A stretch of DNA of 64,000 nucleotides from Pseudomonadota bacterium (GCA_041161065.1 JBEAVE010000006.1:58912-122911); one strand, 5' to 3'; shown: positions 1,997 to 39,609, counted from the first letter of the stretch. Notes: generated by a model from the sequence alone, not told the origin. A program made the numbers and translations.

Positions 1997-2030
1997 AAAA
2001 AAACCCACTCCATCATTTGACAAAGTGGGC
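1997..2030 (-). terminator. rho-independent terminator downstream of globin paralog 2
   Basis: On the minus strand the stem is cccact/agtggg (plus-strand 2004-2009 and 2024-2029), followed by a T7 run (plus-strand A-run 1997-2003). It lies about 20 nt after the stop at 2049. Confidence 0.6.
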
Positions 2031-2048
2031 GTACAATCGCAAAACGTT

Positions 2049-2818: not shown

Positions 2819-3553
2819 ATGCTATTTATTCCTCCTCCAAAATCATTAACCCGTTTAACAGGAAAAGCCATTGGTGATTTTCAAATGATTCGTGATGGCG
2901 ATCGGTTATTATTAGGGGTTTCTGGCGGTAAAGATTCACTTTCTTTATTGCACGTTTTAAGGCACTTTCAACAACGCGCGCCGATTCGATTTGAATTGGG
3001 AGCAATTACTGTTGATCCGTGCATTGAAGGCTTTGATCCTTCTTCTCTCAAAGACTATTTCAAAATGTTAGAAATTCCTTATTTCTATCGTTCACAACCC
3101 ATTGCTGAAGAAGCTAAAACTCGTTTGCAAGGCAATTCATTTTGTGCGTATTGTGCGCGAATGAAACGGGGAATTATGTACACTACTGCGCGCCAAGAAA
3201 ATTATAATGTTTTAGTATTAGCGCAACATTTAGATGATTTGGCAGAAAGTTTCTTTATGTCAGCGTTTTTTGGTGGGCGTTTGAAAACCATGAAAGCTCA
3301 TTACCAAATTGATGCGGGAGATTTGCGGGTTATTCGTCCATTTGTGTATGTGAGAGAACGACAAACCCTCGACTTTGCAAAAAATGCGCAATTACCGCTT
3401 ATTCAAGATTCGTGTCCTGCCTGTTTCAAAATGCCTTCTGAACGTGCCGCAATGAAAACATTATTGGCGCAACAAGAACGTCATTATCCCACTTTATTCA
3501 AAAGTTTATTACACGCGATGCGTCCGCTTTTAACAACGGAGAAGATTTTGTAA
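2819..3553 (+). CDS. ttcA: tRNA 2-thiocytidine biosynthesis protein TtcA (PP-loop ATPase)
   Basis: PP-loop LLLGVSGGKDSLSLL. Cys motifs CAYCARMKRG and SCPACF are typical of the TtcA family. Confidence 0.8.
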   Translation: MLFIPPPKSLTRLTGKAIGDFQMIRDGDRLLLGVSGGKDSLSLLHVLRHFQQRAPIRFELGAITVDPCIEGFDPSSLKDYFKMLEIPYFYRSQPIAEEAKTRLQGNSFCAYCARMKRGIMYTTARQENYNVLVLAQHLDDLAESFFMSAFFGGRLKTMKAHYQIDAGDLRVIRPFVYVRERQTLDFAKNAQLPLIQDSCPACFKMPSERAAMKTLLAQQERHYPTLFKSLLHAMRPLLTTEKIL

Positions 3554-4688: not shown

Positions 4689-6062
4689 ATGAAAAAATAC
4701 CATAAGAAAATACTTGTATTAACGCTGTGCGCAGCCCCGACGTGGGTTTTTGCAACCAACGGTATGAATTTAGAAGGTTTTGGCGCGACCGCACGCGGAA
4801 TGGGCGGCGCATCAATGGCTTACGACAACGGGCTCGCCGCTATGATGAACAATCCCTCCACCTTAGGATTTCTCGAAGAAGGCAAACAACGCGTCGATTT
4901 GGGATTGGGTTTTTTGGCTCCAAATGTCAAAAGTTCCATCGGCGGCATGAGCAGCAAATCCTCTGCCGATAAATTCTGGATGATGCCCGCAGGCATGGGC
5001 TGGGCGGCGAAACAAAACGGCTACACTTACGGGGTCGGGCTGTTTGCGCAGGGCGGCATGGGCACAGAATACGACAGCACACCGTTAGGGTTAGGCGCGG
5101 GCACGACCCGTTCGGAAGTCGGCGTGGGGCGTTTAATTTTCCCGTTGGTCTATGATCTTGATCCACAACTCAAACTCGGCGCATCGTTGGACGTAATTTG
5201 GGCGACAATGGATTTGCAAATGGCAATGACCGGACAAATGCTCGGGTCGATGATGCAGCGCGGCGCGGGAATGGCGATTGCCGCCCCGGGTGAAGCGACC
5301 GGTTCTTTAACCCAAGCGATGGGTTCAATGGGCATCAATCCAAGCTGGGCGCGTTTTGATTTCTCAAATAATAGCGATTTCCTCGGCGAAGCCAAAGGCG
5401 CGGGTTTAACGGGTAAATTAGGCGCAGTTTATCAAATCAACAAAGAACTCAGTTTAGGCGTAACCTATCATTTGAAAAGTTACATGAGTGATTTGAGCAC
5501 CAGCAATGCAAAATTAAGCATGAATGTGGGAGGAAATGTTCAAACATTAACGGGCGATTTGAAACTCAAAAACTTTGAATGGCCCGATACCTACGGCATT
5601 GGCATTTCTTATCGCCCAACCGACCGCTTAATGCTTGCCGCTGACATTAAACAAATTCGTTGGTCGAAAGTCATGGATAGTTTCAATATGGGATTCACTG
5701 CGTCAAATGCCGCTGAAAACGGACCATTTGCAGGTAAAACATTAGATGCCAAACTCTATCAAAATTGGGACGATCAAACCGTTTATTCTTTAGGTGCTTC
5801 TTATCGCTTAGATGATAAGTGGACAGCGCGCGTCGGGGCGAATCTGGCAAATAATCCTATCCCCAGTTCAACCCTTAATTTTCTTTTCCCCGCAACCATC
5901 AAAAATCATTACAGTGTGGGCGCAGGTTATGATCTGAGCAAAAACCAAAGCATTAACGCCGCGTTCATTTACGCACCAACGGTCGATCAAACCAGTGCAA
6001 GTGGCGTAACAACTTCACACAGTCAAATCAATTGGGAAATCATGTATTCTCAGCGTTTCTAA
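4689..6062 (+). CDS. outer-membrane transport protein, FadL/TodX/OmpP1 family
   Basis: Signal peptide. N-terminal hatch motif NLEGFGATARGMGGASMAYD..NNPSTLG. Alternating beta-strand pattern. C-terminal Phe. Confidence 0.8.
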   Translation: MKKYHKKILVLTLCAAPTWVFATNGMNLEGFGATARGMGGASMAYDNGLAAMMNNPSTLGFLEEGKQRVDLGLGFLAPNVKSSIGGMSSKSSADKFWMMPAGMGWAAKQNGYTYGVGLFAQGGMGTEYDSTPLGLGAGTTRSEVGVGRLIFPLVYDLDPQLKLGASLDVIWATMDLQMAMTGQMLGSMMQRGAGMAIAAPGEATGSLTQAMGSMGINPSWARFDFSNNSDFLGEAKGAGLTGKLGAVYQINKELSLGVTYHLKSYMSDLSTSNAKLSMNVGGNVQTLTGDLKLKNFEWPDTYGIGISYRPTDRLMLAADIKQIRWSKVMDSFNMGFTASNAAENGPFAGKTLDAKLYQNWDDQTVYSLGASYRLDDKWTARVGANLANNPIPSSTLNFLFPATIKNHYSVGAGYDLSKNQSINAAFIYAPTVDQTSASGVTTSHSQINWEIMYSQRF

Positions 6063-6095
6063 CGAATTTTCCCATTTTAAATCGCACACAAAGAA

Positions 6096-6135
6096 AAACC
6101 TTCTAAGTTTCTTAACCTAGAAGGTTTCTTTTGTT
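6096..6135 (+). terminator. rho-independent terminator after the FadL-like gene
   Basis: 10-bp stem aaaccttcta (6096-6105) / tagaaggttt (6118-6127), followed by a T-rich tract cttttgtttc. Confidence 0.6.
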
Positions 6136-6199
6136 TCAGTTCTTCAATTATCTAAGCGGCTTTAGATATAAAAAAAGCTGAATATGGTTATCTCAAACT

Positions 6200-6859
6200 T
6201 TATTTAAGTGATAAAGAACCACAGCGTTCTCCGCCTGTAATGTTGCTCACCGCGAGCGTTAGTTTAGTGTTAATTTTAGCGGTTTGCCAAAGGGTTTCTG
6301 GCACTTCACAACGATAGGTTTGTTCTGCATCAGGGTCTTTCAAATTGAGAAAGTGTTTAACTACCCGTTTTCCTTCCCTTTCACAACCAAACATTTCTCC
6401 CGTGCATTTTAATGTCACTTCACCCCATTGCACCTTTTTATCATTACCCACCATTGAAACGTTCCGTAGAAATCCCCAACGGTTCACGTCATATTGACAA
6501 GAAGAATCATAAATAGGTTCATTGCGAAATGTAGGTTGGCATTCTTGTTTTTCTTTGATAGAACCATCGGGTTGTTTTATTTGTTGAGTTGAGCAAGTTT
6601 CTCCCTCTTTAATTTGTTTTTGACTGCGCACTTTCATTGACTTTTTAATATTGTACGCATCGTTTGGCATTTCATTACACCATGTTTCTTGAGCACGGGC
6701 GGCTAAGTTTTCAATTTCAATGCGGGTTTCCCATTGGTGTCCTATAACAACAACACTCACATCATGTGTCCACCAAAGTACTCCACTTCCCGCCGCGGCT
6801 GCGCCTGTTAAAGCAACTAACCAACCTTTTTTAGATGTTTTAGGGGTTTCTGATGACAT
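6200..6859 (-). CDS. hypothetical membrane-anchored Cys-rich protein
   Basis: N-terminal hydrophobic anchor WLVALTGAAAAGSGVLWW followed by ~180 aa containing about 10 Cys. I recognise no family. Confidence 0.5.
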   Translation of the reverse strand: MSSETPKTSKKGWLVALTGAAAAGSGVLWWTHDVSVVVIGHQWETRIEIENLAARAQETWCNEMPNDAYNIKKSMKVRSQKQIKEGETCSTQQIKQPDGSIKEKQECQPTFRNEPIYDSSCQYDVNRWGFLRNVSMVGNDKKVQWGEVTLKCTGEMFGCEREGKRVVKHFLNLKDPDAEQTYRCEVPETLWQTAKINTKLTLAVSNITGGERCGSLSLK

Positions 6860-16489: not shown

Positions 16490-19400
16490 TTATTGAATAG
16501 GAAAATCGCTAATCGTTTCATCGATTTTTTTCATAAGTTGTTGGGTTTTTGTTATCGCTGCTAAAATATACAAATAATGCGCGCAATCTTCATAACTTAA
16601 AATAAGATTTTTACGATCTTTTAACCATTTTTGACACACTTGATAACCTCCAATATGAAATCCCCAAATATCTAGTTTTACATTATCAAAATACTGGGTT
16701 TTGTTGATATAAACTTTGTCATTTTTGTATTCCACTTTCTCGACAATATTATTTCCTTCAATTGGGAAATTATGTTCATAATCCAGATCGGTTTGCATTA
16801 AATGTAAATTTACCAGTTGTTCTCCAAAAATAGCTAATTGTTGAAATAAATTTTTATCATTCGTTAAAGGCAAACGTGGAAAATCCATTTTGAGAAACTC
16901 TGCATATCTTTTTCTATACATTGGGCTATGAAATATCGCATACATATAATGAAAGACATCTAACGCGCTAATTGTTTGTTTGAAATCACCTTTATTTTCA
17001 GAAATAAATTGTAACTTTAATTTAGTTTCTAATTCCACAATAAACTCAGGCGAAAAATTAGGTTTTCTCGGTAATTCTTTATGATGTCCATTACCGCTCC
17101 CATTTCCATTCACAAAATGATCTTTCTCTGAAGACGAAAGATAAAGTGGAAAGAAATTATTACCGCCACGTCTAAATAAATTAAGTTCTGTCATTATGTT
17201 TGAACAGAAGATTATATCCCATTCATTAGAACCAACAACTTGACCTGCTCGTCTAACAGCTAATCCTAAGTTACTTTCTTGCAATATATGTTGCATAACT
17301 TCATATCGCGGTCTCGTTACAACTTGCCCATCATAAATAATGTAATTTATATCAAATGGGCGATAAAGAATTGGTTTAATAACATCTTCTTTTAGATTAT
17401 GTTTTTTAGCCAATTTTTTAGCTATTTGGTAATCAGATGTAATGGTTTCTTTATCTTGTCCAGTTACAATTCCAACCGAATTAATCGGCATCATATCGGT
17501 AACTTTCCAACCTTTTTCATATTCACTTAACAAATCAATATTTTGAGGAACAAATAAATAAAATGGCGATTGTGGTTTCAAAATTGTCCAATCAGTTGTT
17601 TTCAAATCGTTTGCAGATAACCACTGATATTTTGTTTTACGTTCACCATACAAATGCGCATGATAAACGGTCGCAATTTTGTTTTTTCTTTGTTGATGCT
17701 TAATAAAAATGCCAACCGCTACACCTTGTTGAATATCAAAAACATTTTTATCGTTTGAACCATCGGGAGATTGTTCTTTTTTCTTTGAATTTCCATGCAA
17801 ATCTAAAATGTAAATTTCATCAAAATCTTCCATCAATGATTGACGCATTCCTCTAAAAGTTGGATTATCCAAATAACCATGATTTGTTACAAATCCTAAA
17901 ACGCCATAACCTGTTTGTTGAATGCGCCAATGCGCAAAGCGAATAAATTTCACATAATCGTCATTTAACCATTTGGGATTTCTTTCATTCAAAGATTGAC
18001 CATCGACCATAAAATAATTGGCTTGATTTCCTATCCCACGCAATAAATCAGAAATCCATTCACCCGTATTTGCAGAATGTCCAGAATAAGGCGGATTTCC
18101 TAAAATAACCATTACAGGAGATTCTGCTTTAACAAAACTTGCTGCATTTGCTTCGTTTGATAGCCATTTTGCTAACAAAGTTTCTTCATTTTCATGCGGT
18201 TTATCTAAGGTATTAGTTAAGAAAATATTTAATCGTTCATTGCTCTTAAAATCATAACCATATTCTTTTAATTGCAAACCTAATTTCATATGCGCAACGG
18301 TATAAGCCGCCATCAATAATTCAAAACCATGCAGTCGTGGTAATAAATGCTTTGAAACATAATCCGACCACATTCCTTTATTATTTTTGAATTGCTCAAA
18401 TATTTTTGCAATGACTGAATAAAGAAAAGTACCTGTTCCCGTTGCTGGATCGAGGATTTGAACTCGATGGGTTTTATCATCAATTTTTGAACTATCTGCT
18501 AAACCTTTTTTCAAATTAAATTTTTCTTTCAAAATCAAATCAACTGATCGCACAATATATGAAACAACGGGTTCTGGCGTGTAATAAACACCACGTATTT
18601 CTCGTAATTTAGGATTGTATTGGGCAAGAAATGTTTCGTAGAAATGAACCACGGGGTCTTCTTGGCGCGTTTGTTTGCCAAAATCGGCTAAAATTGCTCC
18701 AATATCTGCACGATTCAAAACGGCAACCAAATGCTCAACCATCCACACCAATCGTTCATCTAAATCAATTCCCGCGATTTGATTAAATAAGTTTCTCAAA
18801 AAAGGGTTGGTTTTTGGCAAATAAAATCCTGCATGAATTCGAGAAAAAGGTTGATTGAGTTCTGCACTACATTTTGCTGCAAATAATCCATAACAAATGG
18901 TTTGAGCAACCATATCGCTAAATTGTTCAATGGTCAGCGTATCAATTAAAACAATTCTAAAACTATCTAATTGGCTGTGTATATTGCCACGATTATCTTC
19001 ATTTTGATAAGCCAATTCAATAGAACGTTTGATTTCATTAGCAATATGTGCCATTTTAGCGGCAAGTTCTTCGGGTGTGCGTAAGGTTAAAATTTTTGAT
19101 TCAACAAAAGATTTGATTAAATTTTCAAAACGATTAAATTGATCTTTATTTATGGATAATTTCTTATTTTTAGAATCCCATGTTCCTAACACAACCGTCA
19201 TTTCAAGTTGTTTGTTTTTTTCTATAAACCAGCGAAATTCCAAATAATCGGTTAAAATCAAATTATTTAAGGCGGGTAAATAACGTTGGATTTGTTCTGA
19301 TTGCTCAGTTTTATCTAAATCAATTCCAATATCTTTTGCTTCAAGATGACCAATCGGTTCTTCCCCTTTCGCGATTTCAAAATCGGGCGATCCACATTGA

Positions 19401-19549
19401 ATTCGACGCGGTTCATTTGTAATGCGATAATCGGGTAAAAAGGCTTTCAAAAGCGCAAACAACGCGGGGCGATGCGTATGTTCAGTAGCATTTCCAATTT
19501 GTAAATCATGTTCTATTTGATTTAAATAAGTTTCTATGGCGTTTAACAT
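16490..19549 (-). CDS. MmeI-like single-polypeptide type IIG/IIL restriction-modification enzyme (PD-ExK nuclease + gamma-class N6-adenine methyltransferase + specificity domain)
   Basis: N-terminal GSPDFEI...LEAKD...DLDK...LILTDYLEFRWF follows the MmeI-type D-x(n)-E-x-K nuclease pattern. Methyltransferase motif I is ILDPATGTGTFL and motif IV is GNPPYSG. C-terminal blocks FHYMYAIFHSPMYRKRYAEFLKMDFPRLPL and GGYQVCQKWLKDRK are as in type ISP/IIG specificity domains. The preferred start is ATG 19549 (MLNAIETYL), 1 nt after the ntrB stop. The longest ORF starts at 19621, inside ntrB. Confidence 0.75.
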   Translation of the reverse strand: MLNAIETYLNQIEHDLQIGNATEHTHRPALFALLKAFLPDYRITNEPRRIQCGSPDFEIAKGEEPIGHLEAKDIGIDLDKTEQSEQIQRYLPALNNLILTDYLEFRWFIEKNKQLEMTVVLGTWDSKNKKLSINKDQFNRFENLIKSFVESKILTLRTPEELAAKMAHIANEIKRSIELAYQNEDNRGNIHSQLDSFRIVLIDTLTIEQFSDMVAQTICYGLFAAKCSAELNQPFSRIHAGFYLPKTNPFLRNLFNQIAGIDLDERLVWMVEHLVAVLNRADIGAILADFGKQTRQEDPVVHFYETFLAQYNPKLREIRGVYYTPEPVVSYIVRSVDLILKEKFNLKKGLADSSKIDDKTHRVQILDPATGTGTFLYSVIAKIFEQFKNNKGMWSDYVSKHLLPRLHGFELLMAAYTVAHMKLGLQLKEYGYDFKSNERLNIFLTNTLDKPHENEETLLAKWLSNEANAASFVKAESPVMVILGNPPYSGHSANTGEWISDLLRGIGNQANYFMVDGQSLNERNPKWLNDDYVKFIRFAHWRIQQTGYGVLGFVTNHGYLDNPTFRGMRQSLMEDFDEIYILDLHGNSKKKEQSPDGSNDKNVFDIQQGVAVGIFIKHQQRKNKIATVYHAHLYGERKTKYQWLSANDLKTTDWTILKPQSPFYLFVPQNIDLLSEYEKGWKVTDMMPINSVGIVTGQDKETITSDYQIAKKLAKKHNLKEDVIKPILYRPFDINYIIYDGQVVTRPRYEVMQHILQESNLGLAVRRAGQVVGSNEWDIIFCSNIMTELNLFRRGGNNFFPLYLSSSEKDHFVNGNGSGNGHHKELPRKPNFSPEFIVELETKLKLQFISENKGDFKQTISALDVFHYMYAIFHSPMYRKRYAEFLKMDFPRLPLTNDKNLFQQLAIFGEQLVNLHLMQTDLDYEHNFPIEGNNIVEKVEYKNDKVYINKTQYFDNVKLDIWGFHIGGYQVCQKWLKDRKNLILSYEDCAHYLYILAAITKTQQLMKKIDETISDFPIQ

Positions 19550-19550
19550 A

Positions 19551-20636
19551 TTAAGTTGTAATGGGTAATGAAATCGTAAAAACGGTTTTAGTGGGGCGAC
19601 TTTCACAAGAAATTGTTCCACCGTTTCTATGGACTAAATTTTGAGCAATTGTTAAACCTAACCCCGTTCCTTCGGCGCGTCCTGTCACCATTGGATAGAA
19701 AATATGCTCAAAAATTTCTTCTGGAATTCCCGGTCCATTATCTTGAATATCTACCCGCACCGCCATTTTGTGCAATTTATTATCTAATTTAACCCGATGT
19801 TCAATGCGCGTTCTTAACGTTAAAACGCCTTGTCCATTCATCGCTTGCACTGCATTTCTTAGCAAATTTAGAAATGCTTGGTGTAATTGATCGGGGTCAG
19901 CAAAAATATCTGGGACGCTCGGATCATAATCTTCAATGATTTCAATCAGTTCACCCGATTCATTGGTAATTAACTGCCGTCCTAAACATAAAACCTTATG
20001 AATATTAATCCATTCTTTGCGTGGAGGTGTTCGCGGTCCCAACATTCGGTCGAGCAAAGTCTGCAAACGATCCGCCTCGCCGATAATAATGTCAGTATAT
20101 TCACGCTGTTGCAGCGGAAGTTCGCGCGCCAACAATTGTGCCGCCCCGCGCAAACCGCCGAGTGGATTCTTGATTTCGTGCGCCAAACCCCGCAACAAAT
20201 TGTGCACCGCGCGCCGCCGCAACGACAAATCTTCCTCGCGCGTGAGTCGCAATTGTTGATCAACATTGACCATTTCCACCAAAAACGCATCAGGCGGAAT
20301 AATACCTAACCCGTTGTTATTGTTAGGATAAAAATGTGGGTTGCGAATAGGCGTAATGCTACAATCGACGGTCATTTGCGAACCGGTCAATGTCCCGATT
20401 TTCAAGCCATGTTCGGTGAGTGTGCGGGGCTCTGTTATAAGTCGTTGAAAACACGGACAATCAGGAAACAATATTTCCGCGTGCAAACCACAAACCTGAT
20501 TCGCGCTCAGTTGCAATAAAGTTTCGCCCGCCGGATTGATATATTGCAACGACAAATCACGATCAAACCACAAGACCGCCGTCATTAAATTGTCAAGAAT
20601 ACGCTGTGCAAGTTCCATAGAAGTTTTCACGGGCAA
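19551..20636 (-). CDS. glnL: nitrogen regulation sensor histidine kinase NtrB
   Basis: N-terminal PAS domain. H-box HEIKNPLGGLRGAAQLL. HATPase motifs DNGPGIP and GTGLGL. Confidence 0.9.
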   Translation of the reverse strand: MPVKTSMELAQRILDNLMTAVLWFDRDLSLQYINPAGETLLQLSANQVCGLHAEILFPDCPCFQRLITEPRTLTEHGLKIGTLTGSQMTVDCSITPIRNPHFYPNNNNGLGIIPPDAFLVEMVNVDQQLRLTREEDLSLRRRAVHNLLRGLAHEIKNPLGGLRGAAQLLARELPLQQREYTDIIIGEADRLQTLLDRMLGPRTPPRKEWINIHKVLCLGRQLITNESGELIEIIEDYDPSVPDIFADPDQLHQAFLNLLRNAVQAMNGQGVLTLRTRIEHRVKLDNKLHKMAVRVDIQDNGPGIPEEIFEHIFYPMVTGRAEGTGLGLTIAQNLVHRNGGTISCESRPTKTVFTISLPITT

Positions 20637-21802: not shown

Positions 21803-24463
21803 ATGAAAATATCTTTTCTAAAGGGGGAGAAAACAGTGGAAACAAATACAGTGCAAACGCTTACAAAAGTCGGTTTTTTTCATTCATTACGCACCCGTTT
21901 GATGGGTATTTTATTATTGATTTCATCGATACCGTTAATTATTGCGGGAATTGTTGGTTATCACTATGTAAAAATTGAGTTAGAACATGAAATCTCCAGT
22001 AAGTTAGTGGCGGTTCGTGATATTAAAGCTGCTCAAATCAAAAAGTACTTTGAAGAGCGTGTAACAGATATTAAAGTTTTAATTAAAAATAGTCAAACAA
22101 AAGATGCCATACAAAATTTCACGCAAGCGGTTTTGGAAATGCCAGATTATCGCGCTTTGTATTTGAACAAACCCGAGATAGAAACAGCTAATGATGGTAG
22201 TCGATATACGAAAGTACATAGTTATTATCATCCTATACTCCGTGATTACACAACTAGTTATGGCTACAACGATTTAATGCTTATAGAACCAGAACAAGGT
22301 ACGATTATTTATAGTGTAATGAAGGAGGAAGATTTTGGTACTTCTTTGCGCACAGGAAATTATGCAGATAGTAATTTGGCAGTGGTATTTCGTGAAGTTA
22401 TTAATACGAGAGAAACTGTTGTAAAAGATTATGCGTATTACAAACCCTCAAAAGCTCCCGCTTCGTTTTTAGCTGCACCGATATTAGAAGGAAACAAATT
22501 ATTAGGCGTTTTAGTTATACAACTTTCAACAAAACAACTGGACGAAGTCATGCAAGAAAATACGGGAATGGGTGAAACAGGAGAAACCTATTTAATTGCA
22601 GAAGATCATTTGATGAGATCAGATTCTCGTTTTAGCAAAACATCAACTATTCTTAAACAAAAAGTGGAATCTGTTGCAGTTAGTGAATCATTACAAGGTA
22701 AGAAAGATATTAAAATAGTTAAGGATTATCGTAATAAATTGGTTTTATCCGCCTATCGTCCGCTCGATTTACCCAATTTGCATTGGGCTTTGTTATCCGA
22801 AATAGATGAAGAGGAAGCGTTTGGAAAAATCAATTATTTGCTTTATGGATTGCTTGGGTTGATGGCGATTTGTGGTATGGGAGTTTTAATAGTTGCAATT
22901 CCTCTCAGTAATTCTATTGCAAAACCTGTTCAAAATATTACAAATGTTGCATTACAACTTGCGAAAGGAGATTTAACTCAAGTTATCAATATTCAGCGTA
23001 AAGATGAGATTGGATTAATGGCGGAAGCATTGCGTCAAATGCTTAATACTTGGCGGGCAATGGTTTGGGATTTGTCACAGGTTTCACGTCTTATGTCGGA
23101 AGGCAATATGTCGGTGCGTATTCAAACCGATTTTACGGGTGAATTTGTGCAATTAAAACAGAGCATCAATGAAATGGGTGAACGATTACAAAGTGTCATT
23201 AGTGAAACGGCTAATATCATGACAACTTTAGCAAAAGGCGATACTAAAGCTCGAATTATTAATAATTTTCCGGGTGATTTTTCTGAAATTAAACGCGCCA
23301 CTAATCACATGGCGGAAAACTTCCAATTTATTATTCGAGAAAGTAATAGCAAATTTACTGATTTATCGGAAGGAAAGTTATCGTCAAGGATTTTAAGTGA
23401 TTTCCCGGGTGATTTCTCTGAAATTAAAGTTGCTTGTAATCAAATGGCGGAGAAACTTCAAAATTTATTGATAGAAACAAGCCTAAAAATGACGGATTTA
23501 GCCAATGGTGATCTGCGGGTAAATATTCATAATGATTTTCCCGGTGATTTAGCTGAAATTAAGAATGCTTTAAATCGCACGGTTGAAAAGTTAGAAAACA
23601 TTATTCGAGAGGTTTCAAATACTGCTGAGCAAATTGCAGGTGCAGCAGAGGAACTTAGTGCAACCGCGCAAGGATTATCGATTGGAAATAATAATCAAGC
23701 CTCTGGTTTGGAAGAAACCGCGTCCGCAATTGAACAAATGAGTGCAACGGTCGCGCAAAACGCCCAAAATGCCGCGCATACCAATCAAAGTGCTTTACAA
23801 GTTGCTCAAATGGCAGAGGAAGGTGGAAAAGCGGTTTTAGATACGGTTTCTGCCATGAATCAAATCACCAAACGTATTTCAATTATTGAAGATATTGCTT
23901 ATCAAACAAATCTGTTGGCTTTGAACGCCGCCATTGAAGCCGCGAGAGCAGGTGAGCACGGGCATGGTTTCAGCGTGGTTGCAATGGAGGTGCGCCGCTT
24001 GGCAGAACGCAGCAGAACAGCGGCAGAAGAAATCAGTACGCTCGCCGACAGCAGTACAAAAATCGCCGAATATGCAGGGGAGTTGCTCAAAAAAATTGTT
24101 CCTTCTGTGAAGAAAACTGCCGAATTAGTGCAAGAAATTTCTCTCGCCAGCACAGAGCAAAATAATAACATTTCTCAAATCAACCAAGCCGTTCAACAAT
24201 TAGATCAAATTACCCAACAAAATGCGTCTGCTTCAGAGGAACTCGCCGCCGCCAGCGAACAACTTTCTTCTCAAGGGGCGCAATTACAAAAAATAATGGG
24301 GTATTTCAAATTGCTAGAAACCCCCGATGACATAGAAAATAATCCTAAAAATGAGTCCGTTCTTCCCAAACATCAGCCCGTAACAACACGTGTGACGCAC
24401 ATTAAAATCGCTAAAAAATCAAATCCTTCGCAGCGCAGTGAAGATGATTTTAAACGTTTCTAA
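21803..24463 (+). CDS. methyl-accepting chemotaxis protein with periplasmic Cache-type domain and poly-HAMP array
   Basis: Two TM segments flank a ~300-aa periplasmic domain. One HAMP domain plus 4 HAMP-like repeats follow. The conserved signalling hairpin reads [39 protein letters not shown]. An alternative start is the GTG at 21836, behind AAGGGGGAGA. Confidence 0.85.
23132..23671 (+). repeat. four tandem 135-nt (45-aa) coding repeats (HAMP-like units)
   Basis: Units start in frame at 23132, 23267, 23402 and 23537, each with F-[TP]-G-[ED]-[FL]-x-[EQ]-[IL]-K ([36 protein letters not shown]). Confidence 0.8.
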
Positions 24464-26769
24464 TTCAACCATTTCTTCAACATATTGTTTAAGGAAGTGG
24501 GCGTGACAGGCTTTGCTAAAAAATCATTGATACCCACTATTTTCAATTTGTTTTGTTCTTTAGCAAAATCCAAAGATGAAACCGCAATAATAGGTAATTT
24601 TTCTAAACTCAGTTCCTTTCGTAAATGTTTAGCCGTTGTGTAACCGTCCATGATGGGCATAATAATATCCATGAGAATTAAATCATACTCGTTTTTCTCA
24701 ACCATGATTAAGGCTTTTCTACCATTATTTGCAGTATCAACTTTGAAACCAATTTTCTCTAACATAATTTGCATGAATTTTTGAGTGGTCAAATCATCTT
24801 CAACCACCAGAATATGTTTAGGCTGTTGAAACGCTATTTTATGTTGAATTTTTAGGGTTTCAATCTTCTTTTCAGGAATCGCAATGGGTAAAGAAAGTTG
24901 TATCCAAAAAGTGCTCCCTTGATTTAATTCTGAAATAACGCCAATTTTACCTTTCATCAAAGAAACAATTTTATGACAAATAAATAAACCAATGCCTGCT
25001 CCATTATAGCTTCGACTGGTTATATTTTCTATCTGATTAAAATACTTAAATAAGAGCAGTTGTTTCTCTTTAGAAATCCCCATTCCGGTATCTATTACAT
25101 TAATTTGAAAGGTAACTATTTCTTTGTTATCTTCAAGAATATCGGTACGAACAATGATTTCTCCCTGCTCGGTAAATTTAATGGCGTTAAGCAATAAGTT
25201 AAGAATAATTTGTCGTAATCTTTGCACGTCGCCCACTAAATATTGTGGCAATAATGGTGCTGTATGTAGTTGTATTTTCAAGCCTTTTTGTTGAGCTTTG
25301 GTATGCACTAAATTAACGCTATCACGCAATGTTTGGCGAATATCAAAAGGTTGATGTTCTAATATAATACTGCCCGCATCTAATTGCGCAACATCTAATA
25401 ATTCTTCAATTAAAACAAGCAAGGTATTTCCACAATCATAAATGATTTTAACTTGCTGCCGAAGTTCTTCATCAGTTTCTACTTTTGAAATCACTTCTGA
25501 CATTCCCAAAATACCGTTGAGGGGCGTGCGAAATTCATGGCTTAAATTAGCGATAAACGTGCTTTTAATTCGATTGGCTTCCTCTGCATCTTGTCTTGCT
25601 AAAATTAATGCCGCATTAGCTTGTTCTAAGTCTGCTGTACGTTCTCTAATTTTTCTTTCTAATGTTTCATTGGTATTTTCAACTTCATTTAACATTTTAC
25701 GCAAATTTTTTACCATATAATTAAATGAAATGTACAAATACCCAATTTCATCTTTTGATGGAGGAGTAATATCTAAAGATAAATTTCCTGTTTTTAATTG
25801 GCGAGCAATGAGAGATAATTTATAAATAGGATTAACGATTAAATAGTGCAACAACAAATACAATAAAATGAAAGTTAAAATAGCACTTACAATAGCAGTT
25901 ATAATCAGTGTTCGTTGCAAAAATACCCCTGTTTCTAATACTTCATATTCGGGCAAATAAGCAATCACATACAGGTTTTCATTGAGTTTCAAACCTTCAA
26001 TATAGAAAGGATCACTGTGAGAAATTCTAATCGCTTTTTCTGGAAGATTTATTGCCTGTTTAATGGCGGATATTGTCGGGAGTTTTTGATTGACAGGTTG
26101 AAAGACAATGTGCCCTTGTTTATTGGTTAAAAACAAATAGCCTGTTTTACCCAAAATTTTATTTTTTACCATATTAAATAAAAAGTTAGGTTGAATAACA
26201 ATATTCAAATAACCGCGTAAAGATTGATTGTCATTTTTGTTTTGAGCCTTATAATCATCTAACAAATGCAATTTATAGGATAACAAAAAGAAACTTTCTT
26301 CCTCTGAAATAAATAACTCCGTTAAAATACTTTGACTGTTTTTAATTGCTCCAAAATAGGACGGGGTTTGTTTATTTATAAAATAGACTTCTTTATCCTT
26401 TGTCAAATGGCTATCTTCTGAACCATCAGGTAATAGCAAATTGATTTCTTTGTAATCGGTATTGTTACGTTGATAACTAGAGAATAAACTCAAAATACTG
26501 CTCTGCAATAAAGCATAACGCAAAGGAGGTTCTGTTAATAAGTAATCACGCAACATTTCATTTGACGCTAGAATACGCAATTGATCGTGTGTTGAATGCA
26601 AATAAGAACGCATATTTTGTTGCGTTTGCTCTAAAGTATTATGCACCCTTCCTAAAACTTCTTGGCGAAATGTTGTTATCAAATGCTGATAAACAACATT
26701 ACCAAAAATAAGTAGTGGTAATATCGATAACGGCATTAAAATTAAAATCAGTTTTGTTTTAAGTTTCAT
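24460..26769 (-). CDS. hybrid sensor histidine kinase/response regulator
   Basis: TM - ~250-aa periplasmic region - TM - HAMP. H-box [13 protein letters not shown]. HATPase motif GAGIGL. C-terminal REC domain ([20 protein letters not shown]). Confidence 0.85.
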
Positions 26770-30386: not shown

Positions 30387-31475
30387 ATGATGGCTAATCG
30401 TGATTTAAAAGCGGTACGAACGGATATTGACGCGATTGATGCACAACTTCAATCGTTAATGACGCAACGCGCAAATTTAGCACAAGAAGTCGCTCGCGCA
30501 AAATATGCTGTTGAATCTAATCCAGTTTTTTTCCGTCCTGAACGCGAAATTGAAGTCTTACGCAATGTCGAATTACGCAATCAAGGTCCTTTATCTAATG
30601 AAACGTTGACGCGCTTATTTCGTGAAATCATGTCGGCGTGTTTAGCATTACAAAAACCTTTACAAATCGCGTATTTAGGACCCGAAGGAACGTACTCTCA
30701 AGCCGCTTTAATTAAACATTTCGGACACGCCGCGCAAGGATTGCCCACCCAAAGCATCGACGACGTGTTTCGTGAAGTGATCGCCGACCGCGCGCATTAC
30801 GGCATCGCCCCCGTCGAAAATTCCACCGAAGGCAGCATCAAATCCACACTGGATATGCTCTTAAACAGCCCTCTAAAAATCTGCGGCGAAGTCGAATTAC
30901 CCATTCATCATTGTTTGATGTCCGCACAACCTCTTGAATTTTCAGCAATTAAAAAAGTTTATTTGCACCCGCAATCCTTTGGACAATGTCGCCAATGGTT
31001 GGCAAAAAACCTCCCGCACGCCGATTGTTTGGCAATCGCCAGCAGCAATGCCGATGCCGCCCGTCGCGCCGCGAATGATGCCCAATCTGCCGCCGTTGCG
31101 GGTCAAAATGCCGCCGAACTCTATCATTTACAAATACTTGCCGCTCAAATCGAAGACGAACTCGATAACACCACCCGCTTTGTCATTTTGGGCAAACACG
31201 CGGTCGCGCCAACGGGTCGGGACAAAACCTCGTTGGTTTTATCGGCGGCAAATAAACCGGGTGCGTTGTATGACGTGCTCGCGCCTTTCAAAGATAACGC
31301 CTTGAATTTAACCCGAATTGAATCGCGTCCGTCGCGGCAAGGCACTTGGGAATATATGTTTTTCGTCGACGTTGAAGGGCACATTGACGAATCACCGCTG
31401 GCAGAAGCAAGCCAATTAATTCAATCACATAGCAAGTTTTTTAAACTTTTAGGTTCTTATCCTCGTGCAAATTAA
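30387..31475 (+). CDS. pheA: bifunctional chorismate mutase / prephenate dehydratase (P-protein)
   Basis: N-terminal CM helix pattern, a PDT domain (TRFVILG, TRIESRPS) and a C-terminal ACT region. Confidence 0.93.
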   Translation: MMANRDLKAVRTDIDAIDAQLQSLMTQRANLAQEVARAKYAVESNPVFFRPEREIEVLRNVELRNQGPLSNETLTRLFREIMSACLALQKPLQIAYLGPEGTYSQAALIKHFGHAAQGLPTQSIDDVFREVIADRAHYGIAPVENSTEGSIKSTLDMLLNSPLKICGEVELPIHHCLMSAQPLEFSAIKKVYLHPQSFGQCRQWLAKNLPHADCLAIASSNADAARRAANDAQSAAVAGQNAAELYHLQILAAQIEDELDNTTRFVILGKHAVAPTGRDKTSLVLSAANKPGALYDVLAPFKDNALNLTRIESRPSRQGTWEYMFFVDVEGHIDESPLAEASQLIQSHSKFFKLLGSYPRAN

Positions 31476-31986
31476 GTTTTTGGGAATGATCGCAATAAGT
31501 TGTTGTTTTATTGCACAAAAAGTATCAGCCGGTGTTGAAGGAGAATGGGTGCGGGTTTCGCATGGTGAAATTCCTGAACACGCTTTTTTACTTGAAAATC
31601 AAAGTGTTATCTGCCGCGCACCGCAAAGTAAAGGCGTTTATCCGGGTTATTTAATCCACGAAAGCCGCGCGTGTATTTTAAATGTCGCAGGACGCGCGGT
31701 GAAAGCCATTTTTTACGAAGTGTTATTGGGTGACAATTATCAATGGCAGCCATTTTCAAGAGGTTACGTTGAAACAATCCCGCCAAACGCCGTGTTAGGC
31801 GGCACAGAAGACCCTCATTACGATCGAGCGTTGTATATTTGTCGTGCAAAAATGCAGCAAAAAGAATGGGTTATTGGAAAATTAAGCAATCCCTTGCGCG
31901 GCTGTCAAATTAACCACAACAATCGCGAACATAGCAGCTTAGATTTTGAAATCCTCATCTCAACTAGCACCACACAAATGAAATAA
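31465..31986 (+). CDS. secreted DM9-repeat (DUF3421) protein
   Basis: Signal peptide. Two repeats of the pattern IP..A...........CRA......PG.L......C.......A....YEVL (GEIPEHAF..ICRAPQSKGVYPGYL..FYEVLL and IPPNAVLGG..LYICRAKMQQKEWVIGKL..DFEILI). An alternative ATG at 31486 removes the 11-nt overlap with pheA. Confidence 0.55.
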   Translation: MQIKFLGMIAISCCFIAQKVSAGVEGEWVRVSHGEIPEHAFLLENQSVICRAPQSKGVYPGYLIHESRACILNVAGRAVKAIFYEVLLGDNYQWQPFSRGYVETIPPNAVLGGTEDPHYDRALYICRAKMQQKEWVIGKLSNPLRGCQINHNNREHSSLDFEILISTSTTQMK

Positions 31987-35565: not shown

Positions 35566-36398
35566 ATGATATGAAAGCAGCGACAACTTTATTTCTACAA
35601 AATAGATTAAACCAGTTTTTAGATTTACCCAATGATCGGGAACACTTGTTATCTATTTTACAAAATGCGCGCCGTAAAAATTTGATTGCATTAGATGCCA
35701 TGAAAATGATGGAAGGTGCATTGCAAGTTTCTCAAACACACGTTCATGAAATTATGACACCGCGTGCGCAAATGATTGTTATTTCTCAAAATGATCGACC
35801 AGAAGATTTTTTATCAACGGTTATTAATTCCCAACATTCACGATTTCCAGTGATTGGAGAAAGCCGTGATGAAGTGGTAGGCATTTTGTTAGCAAAAGAT
35901 TTACTCAGCTATTTAGTTGAAGAAAAAGATAGTCGGCATTTTAATATGCGAGATTTGCTACGTCCTGCGTTTTTTATTCCTGAGAGCAAACGATTAGATG
36001 TTTTATTACGTGAATTTAGAACAAATCGTAATCATATGGCGATAATTGTTGATGAATATGCGGGGGTTGCGGGATTGGTCACTATTGAGGACGTAATTGA
36101 AGAAATTGTGGGTAATATTGAAGATGAATATGATTTAGAAGAAGCGGTTTATATTAAACCTCGAGAAGAAGGATTTTACACGGTAAGAGCATTAACGCCC
36201 GTTGAAATATTTAATCAGTATTTCAAAGTTAATTTTAGTGATGCTGAATTTGATACGATTGGAGGCATTTTAACGCAAACATTTGGTTATTTGCCAAAAC
36301 GGGGAGAAACGTTAGAATTAAAGGGTTTGAATTTTGAGGTTGTTCGAGCGGATAAGAAACGTTTGCATTTGCTGCGTGTGCATCAGGTAATTCCTTAG
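35562..36398 (+). CDS. corC: CBS-pair / CorC_HlyC domain magnesium-cobalt efflux protein CorC (YbeX)
   Basis: CBS pair followed by the C-terminal transporter-associated domain. Conserved operon position. Confidence 0.85.
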
Positions 36399-36453
36399 GC
36401 ATTGTTTTTGCTGTATCCTTACAATTTTTATATCATTTTTAGGGAGAAAAGTC

Positions 36454-36816
36454 ATGCGTGAAGAAGTGATTTCCACGATATTACATCAACTTAATGGCAG
36501 CTCTGCCGATATTGAAGCCTCTGCGGTGATTTCAATCGATGGGCTGGTCATCGCGTCGTTGTTGCCGAAAAGCATAGACGAAGACCGCTTGGGCGCGATG
36601 GCGGCGGCAATGCTGTCATTGGGCGAACGCACTGCCGAGGAATTGGCACGCGGCGACCTCGAACAAGTCCTCATCAAAGGCAGCAAAGGGTACGTTTTAA
36701 TGGCGCACGCCGGCGAAGATACCGTCATCTGCGTCATCGCCAAATCCACCGCTAAACTCGGAATGGTGTTCTTAGATGTGAAGCGTAGTGCCGAAGCAAT
36801 TGCTAAGACATTGTAA
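36454..36816 (+). CDS. Roadblock/LC7 (MglB/CvnB-like) domain protein
   Basis: 120 aa. AVISIDGLVIAS...DEDRLGAMAAAMLSLGERTAEELARGDLEQVLIKGSKGYVLMAHAGEDTVICVI fits the Robl_LC7 pattern. Confidence 0.75.
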   Translation: MREEVISTILHQLNGSSADIEASAVISIDGLVIASLLPKSIDEDRLGAMAAAMLSLGERTAEELARGDLEQVLIKGSKGYVLMAHAGEDTVICVIAKSTAKLGMVFLDVKRSAEAIAKTL

Positions 36817-36844
36817 TAACTAACTTAATTTAAGGAGTCATTCT

Positions 36845-37204
36845 ATGGCGGGCAAAGCATTTTTCCTCATTCGCATTAACGATCACGTGCAATATCTGAA
36901 GAAAATTAATCGTACATTAGACGGGCAGGATACTTTTCAAGGTTGCAGTCATTCTGAGTGCAAATTAGGCAAATGGATTTACGGTGAAGGAGAAAGCGAA
37001 GTTGCTGCATTAAATAATCCTCGAGCAATAGAACTTTTTGAAGCCCTCAAAGAACCCCATCTGCAATTTCACAACATGAGCCAACTTGCTTTAGAAAAAA
37101 ACCTCGCCGGCGATAAGATCGGCGCGCAACAAGCCATCACAGAAATGCACAAACTTTCAACTATTGTTTATAACAGGCTATTAGATTTAGATAAAATAGC
37201 TTAA
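36845..37204 (+). CDS. stand-alone chemoreceptor zinc-binding (CZB) domain protein
   Basis: The full CZB signature H-x2-Y-x21-C-x-L-G-x-W-x27-H-x3-H is present (HVQY ... CKLGKW ... HLQFH). I counted the spacing by hand and it falls inside the published ranges. Confidence 0.7.
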   Translation: MAGKAFFLIRINDHVQYLKKINRTLDGQDTFQGCSHSECKLGKWIYGEGESEVAALNNPRAIELFEALKEPHLQFHNMSQLALEKNLAGDKIGAQQAITEMHKLSTIVYNRLLDLDKIA

Positions 37205-37258
37205 CTTTTTTCTTTCTCCAAACGACATGGGTAATTTGGAGAAAGTGAGGACTCTCCT

Positions 37259-38422
37259 ATGAAGAAAAATACCATCAATATTTGTGCAGTGGGTTTAGAA
37301 ATCCAGTTTGAAAAAATGCTTCATTGGGTGTTTGAACACAAAGCAAATAACTTTGTACTGTCGTCAGAAGAAAACGCCGATGCTTGCATTTTTGATTTCG
37401 ATAGTTTGCACGCCAAAGAACGCTGGCACACTTACCGCAAACATTATCCACACCTTCCCGCCATTATTTTGTCATTGCATGATAACGTGCCTGAGAAACA
37501 GTTTTTTATTAAGAAACCCGCCGAGCTTGACCAATTTATTAATGTATTACATAAATTAGAGAAAGTGGTTATACAAAATCGCCGATCCCTCCCGATAAAA
37601 AACGATTTACCACCCCCCAAAGAAGAACTCATTTTAAGAATTCGCTCTTCCGAAAAAAAATCGCTTCATCAAGCAAATAAAACATTTGGAAATGAACAGC
37701 TTAAAACCTTGTCGAATTATGCAGAATCTTCCGTTTGCGGATTTGAATCGGATATCAATCCACAAGATGAACAGGCGGTTTTAAAAGTTAGTTATGAGCG
37801 GTCGAGACGCTTGCAAGGTTTGATAGAAAAATCCTTAGAAACGGCTAAAAATAGTGGTTGTGTTAATCGTTTGAAAGGCACAATGGGAGAACTCTTGCTT
37901 GATCCTCTGAATCAGCGCGTGTTGTGCGGCGTTAAAGAACAAACTTTGAACAGTTTAATGCTGCTGCCGGCAAAAAATCTCGCTATAGAAACCCAATTAC
38001 TTTCTCCAAATCAAGCCAAAGAATACATTAAAACCTCTAATATCCCTTTTCATTATGAAAAACTAGATGCTTTTCTTTGGAAAGTAGCGATTTTAACTGC
38101 TCACGGAAGAGTACCCACCGGAACAGACTTAAATGCCCCCGTTATTCTCATGCGATGGGCTAATTTTACTCGTTTGATGATTACGCCTTATGCTTTACAA
38201 ATCAATGCGTTATGGTCTGATTCGCCTTATTCTTTAATAGAAACCGCCGCTTTACTAAAAATCCCCCAGCGTTATGTTTTTTCATTGTACAGTGCAATGT
38301 TTGCGCTTAATTTAGCGTGCGTCACTTCTAATATTTCTCCGCATAAGAAACGGACGCTTTCAACCATTTCTCCAGAAAAACGGGGCTTATTTCAACGTTT
38401 ATTAGCAAAACTGTCTTTTTAG
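37259..38422 (+). CDS. hypothetical protein (possible degenerate receiver-like N-domain, possible winged-helix-like C-terminus)
   Basis: 387 aa between the CZB and GTPase genes, with 5 nt before the GTPase start. The N-terminus INICAVGLE...ADACIFDFDS...PAIILSLHD has a receiver-like beta-alpha rhythm but no DD pair. The C-terminal SLIETAALLKIPQRYVFSLYSAMFALNL resembles the DUF742 type. Confidence 0.45.
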   Translation: MKKNTINICAVGLEIQFEKMLHWVFEHKANNFVLSSEENADACIFDFDSLHAKERWHTYRKHYPHLPAIILSLHDNVPEKQFFIKKPAELDQFINVLHKLEKVVIQNRRSLPIKNDLPPPKEELILRIRSSEKKSLHQANKTFGNEQLKTLSNYAESSVCGFESDINPQDEQAVLKVSYERSRRLQGLIEKSLETAKNSGCVNRLKGTMGELLLDPLNQRVLCGVKEQTLNSLMLLPAKNLAIETQLLSPNQAKEYIKTSNIPFHYEKLDAFLWKVAILTAHGRVPTGTDLNAPVILMRWANFTRLMITPYALQINALWSDSPYSLIETAALLKIPQRYVFSLYSAMFALNLACVTSNISPHKKRTLSTISPEKRGLFQRLLAKLSF

Positions 38423-38427
38423 AAACC

Positions 38428-38961
38428 ATGAGCGATTACAAAATTATTTTTACCGGTCCAACAGGCGCGGGCAAATCAACTGCGATCGCCGCCTTGAGCG
38501 ATGTGCCCCCCGTTAAAACTGAAGCAAAGTCCAAAGAAACAATAGGTTACGTCGGAAAAAACGGGATCACCGTCGCACTAGATTACGGGATTTTGAAATT
38601 GTCCGATCACGATAAAGTGCATTTGTTCGGCACGCCGGGACAGGAACGCTTTGATTTTATGTGGGATATTTTGACGGAGGGCGGATTGGGGCTTATTTTG
38701 TTGATCAACAACACCCGACCTGATCCTTTGCAAGATATGACATTTTTTTTACAGGCTTTTCAAGGATTTATCAGCAAAACAAAACTGGCGGTCGGCATCA
38801 CTCGAATGGATTTGCAAGCCACGCCCACGTTGGAGGATTTTCACCAAATCCTGCGTGAACACCACTTGAATCCTCCGTTGTTTGAAATAGACGCGCGCTC
38901 AAAACACGACATTACGTTGTTATTGCAGGCGTTGCTGTATTCGTTGGATTGCGGATTGTAA
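38428..38961 (+). CDS. small Ras-like GTPase of the CvnD/MglA-like (ATP/GTP-binding protein) type
   Basis: P-loop GPTGAGKST. The G3/switch II block HLFGTPGQERFDFMWDIL followed by LILLINNTRPD is as in conservon CvnD proteins. Length 177 aa. Confidence 0.75.
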   Translation: MSDYKIIFTGPTGAGKSTAIAALSDVPPVKTEAKSKETIGYVGKNGITVALDYGILKLSDHDKVHLFGTPGQERFDFMWDILTEGGLGLILLINNTRPDPLQDMTFFLQAFQGFISKTKLAVGITRMDLQATPTLEDFHQILREHHLNPPLFEIDARSKHDITLLLQALLYSLDCGL

Positions 38962-38982: not shown

Positions 38983-39017
38983 AAAAAAGGCGCTGCTTTT
39001 AAAACAACGCCTTTTTT
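38983..39017. terminator. bidirectional rho-independent terminator between convergent genes
   Basis: Stem aaaaaaggcg (38983-38992) / cgcctttttt (39008-39017). The A-run and T-run allow function on both strands. Confidence 0.6.
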
Positions 39018-39034: not shown

Positions 39035-39397
39035 TTATTGTGCGGGATTTGCAGCAGGTGCAGGCTCAACAGCTTTGGCTTTAGCTTTTTTAGCCTTTTT
39101 GCTGTATTTTTTCTTAGCTTTTTTGCCTTTTTTAGACTTTTTGCCTTTTTTAGACTTTTTGCTCTTCTTAGCTTTTTTCGCAGGCATTTCTTCTACGATT
39201 TTAGCTCTAGGAGCTGGGACTGCTTCAGATTTTACCGCAGGAGCTACAGGAGCAACTGGGGTAGCTTTTTCTACTTTGGTAGTAGCTTCAGCTTTAGGAG
39301 CGTCTTCAGGTTTTGCAGTTTTGCTGCAAGCACCAACTAACAACAACGCAGCAATACTAACTGCTGCACCAAGTAATTTAAGAGATTTGCTTAACAT
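39035..39397 (-). CDS. lipoprotein with Ala/Pro-rich linker and polylysine C-terminal tail
   Basis: The start is set at MLSKSLKLLGAAVSIAALLLVGAC (lipobox VGAC). The C-terminal tail is KKAKKSKKSKKGKKSKKGKKAKKKYSKKAKKAKAKA. Confidence 0.6.
   Translation of the reverse strand: MLSKSLKLLGAAVSIAALLLVGACSKTAKPEDAPKAEATTKVEKATPVAPVAPAVKSEAVPAPRAKIVEEMPAKKAKKSKKSKKGKKSKKGKKAKKKYSKKAKKAKAKAVEPAPAANPAQ
39125..39160 (-). repeat. perfect 18-nt tandem duplication inside the polylysine tail coding region
   Basis: gccttttttagacttttt occurs twice in tandem (39125-39142 and 39143-39160), embedded in a longer imperfect ttttt-ag-c repeat tract. Confidence 0.85.
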
Positions 39398-39609
39398 TAA
39401 CGAAATTTCTCCATGCACGGGGTTGTGATCAAAAATGCAACATACTCGCTGGTGAGCTTGTATGCTACGCCCTTGAAGCAATTGTACGCTTCAGGTGTTA
39501 AGATTTTGGCACAATAGCTTATTTAACGCAAGTGAAAAGTTTAATTTTTTTGAATCGGGGGGCAGCGATCGGGTTGTCCCAATTTCCCTAAAACCTAGAT
39601 ATTTATCAA

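Follow-up and report, generated by a model that had tools for sequence, protein, structure and literature searches.

A predicted Group 3 MglA-type GTPase module with a stand-alone CZB protein in a Pseudomonadota genome

Bacterial small Ras-like GTPases are understood mainly through the control of polarity in Myxococcus and, more recently, through the conservons of actinobacteria. Here, we describe a four-gene module in a 64,000-nucleotide stretch of DNA from a Pseudomonadota bacterium with a sulfur-bacterium-like genome (GCA_041161065.1, JBEAVE010000006.1:58912-122911; the whole stretch is referred to as the window). The genes, at positions 36454–38961, encode a Roadblock/LC7 protein, a protein consisting of a single CZB (chemoreceptor zinc-binding) domain, a protein termed X here and a small GTPase. 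The module is probably a minimal form of a Group 3 MglA system with an added stand-alone CZB zinc-thiolate sensor, that is, a kinase-free GTPase switch fitted with an exchangeable one-domain sensor. The Group 3 MglA system is the known, experimentally unexplored part of this arrangement; the stand-alone sensor is the part that is apparently new.

Neisseria, Xanthomonas, Stenotrophomonas and many sulfur-oxidizing symbionts and giant sulfur bacteria carry Group 3 systems, and the literature found on these systems consists of colonization genetics in Snodgrassella (PMC11112851). Their pairing with a free CZB protein gives a testable hypothesis, in which the Group 3 GTPase switch acquires an input and free CZB sensors acquire a downstream partner. 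If it is true, the CZB-only class gains its first partner and function, and bacterial small GTPases gain a direct metal, redox or gas input.

The free CZB protein and its conserved neighbours

The Roadblock/LC7 and CZB domains named in an initial annotation of this DNA were both recovered by hidden Markov model (HMM) scans above the curated Pfam cut-offs (Robl_LC7, 66.2 bits versus 23; CZB, PF13682, 48.6 bits versus 29.4). The CZB protein is indeed nothing but this domain, and the complete signature announced for it can be read from the translation as H14-x2-Y17-x21-C39-x-L-G-x-W44-x27-H72-x3-H76, in which H14, C39, H72 and H76 are the 3His/1Cys zinc ligands. The zinc-ligand motif is complete in 43 of 43 module-associated CZB proteins. 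No sequence relative of the protein was found in the PDB at E ≤ 1. A search seeded with it returned 33 relatives, all CZB-only and 82–128 amino acids long, and the three contigs inspected from this search all carry the module again, with genomic surroundings that differ from one contig to the next.

CZB domains bind zinc through three histidines and one cysteine and change conformation upon zinc loss or cysteine oxidation, a switching behaviour known for DgcZ and TlpD only (PMC8262984). CZB-only proteins make up 27% of CZB sequences in the same survey, which gives them no partner or function and mentions neither GTPases nor Roadblock proteins (PMC8262984). The window protein has the Pfam domain, the 3His/1Cys site and the C-x-L-G-x-W motif in common with DgcZ of Escherichia coli and TlpD of Helicobacter pylori. 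In those two, however, it is the fusion partner of a diguanylate cyclase or a chemoreceptor signalling domain, whereas the 119-residue protein of the window is free and has a Roadblock protein and a small GTPase as conserved neighbours.

The conservation of this neighbourhood was surveyed by scanning one genome per species, which gave 179 relatives of X; the counts below refer to the best 80 of these 179 loci. Open reading frames (ORFs) were called in every locus, and labels were assigned to them by HMMs derived from the window proteins and from Pfam-identified accessory proteins. The hosts of the 80 loci include Thiomargarita, Beggiatoa, Thioploca, Parabeggiatoa, Marithrix, Candidatus Thiodiazotropha, Sedimenticolaceae, tubeworm endosymbionts, Competibacteraceae, Methylophaga, Dechloromonas and Methylophilaceae. 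The nearest relative is a Thiomargarita metagenome-assembled genome (MAG), in which X is 65% identical and the flanks are the same, and the contig of locus L001 likewise keeps the order from miaB to corC followed by Roadblock, CZB, X and GTPase. The four-gene order recurs with different flanking genes in Thiomargarita-, Beggiatoa-, Thioploca-, Parabeggiatoa- and Marithrix-type genomes, that is, in genomes of the Beggiatoaceae type, and in metagenome contigs, often with a second CZB gene after the GTPase gene. The synteny of the four genes, on which the initial annotation had staked its proposal, is conserved far beyond chance.

In most other genomes the order is A, X, GTPase, B, an optional protoglobin and Roadblock, followed by either CZB or PAS plus a phosphonate-binding-type protein. 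Here, A is a TPR-like protein of about 250 residues and B, of about 213 residues, has a weak Robl_LC7 match (19.6 bits) and is a second, divergent Roadblock copy. In 65 of the 80 loci the GTPase gene directly follows X, at a median distance of 8 nt, and the pair often overlaps. Variations on the gene set were also seen. A second CZB-only gene stands directly after the GTPase gene in many Beggiatoaceae-type modules (L014, L016, L017, L019, L023, L025, L026 and L093); the window has none, and a terminator lies directly 3′ of its GTPase gene. Two tandem X genes precede a single GTPase gene in the Methylophaga-type MAGs of L080 (2789–5202) and L086, and contig L004 carries two X-GTPase pairs (1487–3228 and 4938–6756) with a cNMP-binding protein between them.

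Three kinds of stand-alone sensor were found among the 80 loci: CZB in 36, protoglobin in 16 and PAS in 12, with two types together in seven and none detected in 23. Immediately downstream of the Roadblock gene, CZB was seen 27 times and PAS ten times, and protoglobin immediately upstream of it 14 times; in 13 cases CZB stands immediately downstream of the GTPase gene. Since protoglobin or PAS fills the same position in sister operons, the architecture is best read as one with an exchangeable sensor. The PAS sensor is a 157-residue protein, which is followed in ten of its 12 loci by a protein of about 248 residues belonging to the periplasmic phosphonate-binding family (PF12974, 112 bits; L045, L052, L062, L065, L078, L080, L083, L085, L086 and L088). 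Redox or gas sensing is typical of CZB, protoglobin and PAS alike, and the sensory input of the module is presumed to be its CZB protein.

In a mirror-tree analysis the CZB proteins diverge in step with the Roadblock, X and GTPase proteins (r = 0.72–0.85 for the pairwise distances), and the CZB gene has therefore been inherited with the module. The text of the survey that defined Group 3 mentions no CZB, zinc, PAS, globin or sensor (PMC4316618), and among the top-ranked full-text matches there was no paper that joins 'chemoreceptor zinc-binding' or protoglobin to Roadblock, MglA or MglB. The free CZB protein is thus a genuine, conserved member of a Roadblock and GTPase module, and one that is apparently new, in agreement with the initial annotation, as no description of it was found in the searchable literature. 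Precedents exist for a sensor coupled to systems of this kind. Stand-alone CvnF accessory sensors feed actinobacterial G-protein systems (PMC13343842). A globin is fused to a Roadblock/LC7 domain in HGbRL of Methylacidiphilum infernorum, so that a gas or redox sensor is coupled to a Roadblock domain and a sensor acting on Roadblock has a precedent; HGbRL is, however, a fusion protein with a globin as its sensor, is limited to M. infernorum and two closely related species of Methylacidiphilum and has no X-type partner described (PMC4476040).

Group 3 assignment of the GTPase and its partners

Group 3 MglA systems were defined in the 2014 survey of prokaryotic small GTPases by Wuichet and Sogaard-Andersen as almost exclusively beta- and gammaproteobacterial systems (PMC4316618). 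They have one or two MglB genes, a GTPase whose G4 motif lacks the lysine of NKxD and whose G5 motif is DAR, and a partner protein with a predicted receiver-like N-terminus, a variable linker and a C-terminus in which a winged helix-turn-helix is predicted (PMC4316618). The GTPase of the window matches ATP_bind_1 (PF03029) with 48.7 bits (cut-off 27), and its Ras score of 20.6 bits falls just under the cut-off for that family. Its motifs are G1 GPTGAGKS (10–17), G3 TPGQ (69–72), an atypical G4, T125-R-M-D128, and G5 D155-A-R157; G-I-T-R-M-D at G4 and DAR at G5 are conserved across its relatives, including that of Neisseria. The G4 motif thus lacks the NKxD lysine and G5 is DAR, features described for Groups 2 and 3 (PMC4316618). 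The other features of Group 3 agree as well: a single Robl_LC7 gene is present (36454–36816); X has no Pfam family, a receiver fold, a variable linker and three helices with a strand at 312–355; and the hosts of the relatives are Gammaproteobacteria plus Dechloromonas and Methylophilaceae.

Among annotated collections, tblastn gave a Neisseria gonorrhoeae protein as the best match of the GTPase (49% identity, E = 6e-35). The CvnD proteins of Streptomyces are 33–35% identical in this search and 33–37% over all comparisons made, and the ranking by identity runs Neisseria, Ralstonia, Streptomyces. Homologues of the GTPase (167 bits), Roadblock (146 bits), X (as two fragments), A and B are all present in the N. 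gonorrhoeae locus, and its gene order A, X, GTPase, B, Roadblock is that of the wider family. This locus, L090, lies in a record of 2.17 Mb (NZ_CP119140.1) that is filed as a plasmid in PLSDB and is chromosome-sized; A, X, GTPase and B are each split into two ORFs there, by frameshift sequencing errors or pseudogenization. Because the published description matches point by point and the Neisseria locus is homologous, the module is filed, on its motifs, gene content and identity ranking, as a putative Group 3 MglA system of the one-MglB form. It has in common with the Group 3 loci of Neisseria, Xanthomonas, Stenotrophomonas and Snodgrassella a GTPase with a non-canonical G4 and a DAR motif, a coupled Roadblock protein, a receiver-linker-winged-helix partner and the lack of a kinase, and with the Neisseria locus also direct homology of GTPase, Roadblock and X. 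It differs in having one MglB without the TPR-like A and the divergent MglB-like B carried by most relatives, and in the CZB gene between Roadblock and X, whereas the published description contains no sensor at all.

The initial annotation had instead taken the unit for a conservon-like (CvnA–D) system, in which CZB replaces the CvnA sensor kinase and X is an exchange factor of the CvnC/DUF742 type with an added degenerate receiver. An operon in which a Roadblock protein is combined with a GTPase of the MglA branch and with a third, helix-turn-helix protein does follow conservon logic, and the combination is also found in the Mfp operon, whose DUF742 protein MfpC has been reported to be a guanine nucleotide exchange factor (PMC11343762). 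The Roadblock protein matches CvnB5 (3leq, E = 1.5e-9) and is, like CvnB, a Roadblock/LC7 protein. GPTGAGKST and HLFGTPGQERFDFMWD, on which the proposal of a CvnD-type GTPase was built, are both read in the GTPase, which shares PGQxRFxFMW and DAR with CvnD; its place in the MglA/CvnD branch stands. Its CvnD type does not, given the higher identity to Neisseria and a Group 3-type TRMD at G4 where the CvnD of the genuine conservon L091 reads NRF; the N-x-F-D type of G4 seen in Group 2 (CvnD-type) GTPases is missing.

Nor does the rest of the module conform. No kinase gene lies within the four-gene unit, as the initial annotation had noted, or is linked to any of the 80 related loci, whereas L091 has its kinase. 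As none is listed for Group 3 either, the CZB protein appears to have been added to the module and not exchanged for a kinase, and sensor-less versions such as that of Neisseria imply that nothing was 'replaced'. Some conservons do use stand-alone accessory sensors, CvnF and CvnE; these act on the kinase, which the module lacks. Conservons are moreover described as restricted to Actinomycetota (PMC13343842), a different phylum, and contain a different group of GTPase and a DUF742 protein as the third component. The supposed DUF742/CvnC homology of the C-terminus of X was rejected by profile-profile comparison with DUF742 proteins, for which a Streptomyces conservon was fetched as a reference. 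With 60 X and 34 DUF742 sequences, hhalign gave as its sole match a non-significant one (probability 0.6%, E = 0.1) over 21 columns that cover just the turn of the DUF742 helix-turn-helix, a generic likeness, and none of 17 X homologues matched DUF742 (PF05331) even at E ≤ 10.

MglB-type Roadblock dimers act as GTPase-activating proteins (GAPs) on MglA-type GTPases, and the Roadblock protein is presumed, from its fold family and the operon coupling, to be the GAP partner of the module GTPase. Its relatives in the PDB include, besides CvnB5, 7f8m (E = 6.8e-24) and MglB (3t1s, E = 1.4e-3); 7f8m, a 120-residue 'Robl_LC7 domain-containing protein', is the closest of the solved structures, well ahead of all those of MglB and CvnB. 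The Roadblock protein is the most conserved one of the module, its p-distance averaging 0.26 over 21 systems (20 loci and the window).

Protein X, which the initial annotation could place in no family, indeed has no match in Pfam or NCBIfam, and some of its homologues match Pfam FleQ at 5e-7. An exhaustive profile search returned 1,619 cluster representatives at 50% identity, and X thus represents a large family without a Pfam model. The top 50 Foldseek matches of its N-terminal domain in the PDB are almost all receivers or receiver-like, with target-normalized TM-scores of up to 0.63. In the AlphaFold model strands 3 and 4 end at D46 and S72, respectively, and strand 5 is followed by K86-P87. 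The domain had been called degenerate; among 60 diverse homologues, however, D46 is kept in 54, D48 in 59, S/T72 in 54, K86 in 59 and P87 in all, and an acidic residue follows strand 1 (position 14) in 43, so that of the pair of acidic residues looked for there only one is usual. The alignment therefore indicates a conserved Asp/Ser/Lys-Pro active site and not a degenerate one.

The linker of X ranges from about 40 to about 300 residues among homologues. Its C-terminal half is modelled with a pLDDT of 88 and a pTM of 0.80 and has no Foldseek match in the PDB at E ≤ 1e-3; a profile search of PDB sequences with it gave only a non-significant generic helix-turn-helix match. The winged-helix-like unit comprises helices 312–321, 326–333 and 337–349 and strand 353–355, contains a near-invariant IPQRYVF and has a largely hydrophobic recognition helix (IPQRYVFSLYSAM). 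Behind a disordered stretch, a C-terminal helix is predicted at 377–386 with a consensus, RGLFxRILxxL, that is conserved across the family. Its hydrophobic moment averages 0.42 in 60 homologues, compared with 0.45 obtained with the same formula for the membrane-targeting sequence of E. coli MinD. The helix may be a membrane- or partner-binding peptide, and a conserved amphipathic helix at this position would be odd in a plain soluble transcription factor.

A proposed switch and its alternatives

In the mechanism that we propose, the CZB protein would switch conformation when zinc is lost from its Cys-His3 site or when the cysteine is oxidized, as the CZB domains of DgcZ and TlpD do, and in one of its states would bind a core component of the module. 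Gene order points to the Roadblock GAP as this partner, and co-divergence points weakly to X. Binding would tilt the GTPase towards GTP hydrolysis or towards nucleotide exchange, and the GTP-bound GTPase would then act through X, whose gene is translationally coupled to its own. X would give the output, either transcription via the winged helix or a localized, membrane-associated activity. A transcriptional output was favoured for Group 3 on account of the winged helix (PMC4316618); a membrane-associated or protein-binding role of X is equally possible, because the recognition helix is hydrophobic and the C-terminal amphipathic helix is MinD-like. The conserved receiver active site may leave room for a second input, namely phosphorylation by an unlinked kinase. 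We speculate that the cue is redox- or oxygen-related, because of the types of sensor found and because the hosts are mostly sulfur oxidizers of oxic-sulfidic interfaces, a way of life that such a cue would fit. A broader proposal can be put forward tentatively, namely that interchangeable CZB, protoglobin and PAS sensors dock on the Roadblock GAP or on X and so gate the GTPase across widespread kinase-free Group 3 modules.

Several observations weigh against a sensor-gated switch. No sensor was detected in 23 of the 80 loci, a number that includes incomplete contigs and loci in which ORF calling missed some genes, and the Neisseria locus has no sensor gene; a dedicated sensor is therefore not needed for the core to work. 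The partial mirror-tree correlations, for which the pairs are not independent, are −0.16 for CZB with Roadblock, 0.56 for CZB with X and 0.33 for CZB with GTPase, and thus do not single out Roadblock as the partner of CZB. Of the oxidants of CZB, HOCl has been studied best, and as a cue for free-living sulfur bacteria it is unlikely. The receiver of X looks phosphorylatable, and phosphorylation by an unlinked kinase might be the main input, with CZB a mere modulator. In addition, no biochemical study was found in the literature on Group 3 systems.

One alternative concerns the output and is compatible with the sensor-gated switch. The module could be a polarity or motility switch resembling MglA/MglB/RomR of Myxococcus, setting the direction of gliding or the activity of type IV pili in filamentous sulfur bacteria with respect to oxygen or redox gradients that the sensor reads. 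The Myxococcus xanthus system (MglA/MglB/RomR-RomX) is the paradigm for an MglA-type GTPase with a Roadblock GAP, and its RomR, which works with MglA, is a receiver-domain protein with a long disordered linker. The hosts of the module are largely gradient-dwelling sulfur oxidizers, many of them gliding Beggiatoaceae, and all three sensor types suit such a role. The Group 3 mgl genes of Snodgrassella reportedly aid gut colonization and have been linked to pilus-dependent behaviour (PMC11112851). On the other hand, non-gliding symbionts, among them Thiodiazotropha and those of tubeworms, make up many of the hosts, no motility genes are conserved beside the module in the surveyed loci, and the authors of Group 3 preferred transcription. 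In its make-up the M. xanthus system differs from the module: its GTPase is a Group 1 MglA with a canonical G4, its genes are dispersed, its input comes from the Frz chemosensory system rather than from a one-domain sensor, and the homology shown between RomR and X goes no further than the receiver fold. We consider a polarity or motility output of the module rather improbable.

It is a little less probable still that X is a phosphorylation-driven response regulator, which receives its phosphate on D46 from an unlinked kinase and acts on transcription through its winged helix, with the GTPase and Roadblock protein only tuning it and CZB being a minor or unrelated accessory, for example a zinc buffer. 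The receiver fold, its strongly conserved active-site residues, the winged-helix-like unit and the existence of sensor-less loci would all suit such a regulator. No locus, however, has a linked kinase gene, and the close spacing of the X and GTPase genes, which often overlap, speaks for a central role of the GTPase. Three unrelated sensor folds in one slot are hard to square with zinc buffering, and the hydrophobic recognition helix and the amphipathic C-terminal helix are unusual for a soluble transcription factor. A conservon-like system, with its missing kinase, non-DUF742 third protein and different GTPase group, is highly improbable, and the Group 3 module with an added sensor is preferred to it.

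Operon layout and flanking genes

The four genes lie on the + strand directly 3′ of miaB, phoH/ybeZ, ybeY and corC; ORF calling returned them exactly as initially annotated, co-directional and spaced 28, 54 and 5 nt apart. They probably form one operon. The features are collected in Table 1.

Table 1. Features of the four-gene module and its borders (positions counted from the first nucleotide of the window)
Feature	Position	Strand	Basis or remark
Candidate promoter	36396..36425	+	Weak sigma-70-like, TAGGCA-18-TACAAT, between corC stop and Roadblock start
Roadblock/LC7 protein, MglB-type, 120 aa	36454..36816	+	Pfam Robl_LC7
Stand-alone CZB protein, 119 aa	36845..37204	+	Pfam CZB PF13682
Protein X, 387 aa	37259..38422	+	No Pfam or NCBIfam family
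X residues 1-110, receiver (REC) fold	37259..37588	+	AlphaFold, Foldseek
X residues 111-154, disordered linker, variable length	37589..37720	+	AlphaFold pLDDT <50
X residues 155-359, conserved alpha/beta domain ending in winged-helix-like unit	37721..38335	+	AlphaFold
X residues 374-387, predicted basic amphipathic C-terminal helix KRGLFQRLLAKLSF	38378..38419	+	Helix prediction, conservation
Small GTPase, putative Group 3 MglA-type, 177 aa	38428..38961	+	Pfam ATP_bind_1 PF03029, motifs
Hairpin with A6 and T6 flanks	38983..39017	.	Terminator scan and sequence

The promoter candidate matches the consensus at nine of 12 positions, and promoter-like sites are not commoner in the region than in shuffled sequences; it may serve the operon, and read-through from corC may do so as well. 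The terminator scan places the hairpin on the − strand, and T6 also stands 3′ of it on the + strand. It is likely to be the bidirectional intrinsic terminator that the initial annotation had described, ending both the operon and a convergent lipoprotein-like gene. The latter (39035–39481, − strand) is a 148-residue ORF without a Pfam family, which has a lipoprotein-like signal (LLVGAC), an Ala/Pro/Lys-rich region after the signal and a KKSKKGKK-type tail; a − strand ORF of similar size lies at the same place in L001 and L010.

The G+C content of the window is 39.6%, and it contains no second copy of the module genes and no A, B, protoglobin, PAS or periplasmic binding protein (PBP) genes. X is identical to a protein of a MAG deposited as 'Pseudomonadota bacterium'. 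No DNA similarity to the module was found in plasmids. Membership of an anti-phage defence system was considered and rejected, as PADLOC gave only a trivial P-loop match and no defence-system family. The nearest histidine kinase gene, about 10 kb upstream of the module (24460–26769, − strand), encodes an unrelated hybrid kinase of the dCache-HAMP type. A HAMP-rich methyl-accepting chemotaxis protein (21803–24463, + strand) and a Type ISP restriction-modification enzyme (16490–19621, − strand) are also encoded in the region 10–20 kb upstream. The contig of L001, the sole locus inspected far upstream, ends before the restriction, chemotaxis and kinase genes. Closer to the module, a 173-residue protein (31465–31986, + strand) has an N-terminal signal-like segment and two repeats of DM9 (PF11901, 85 bits), a domain better known from insects.

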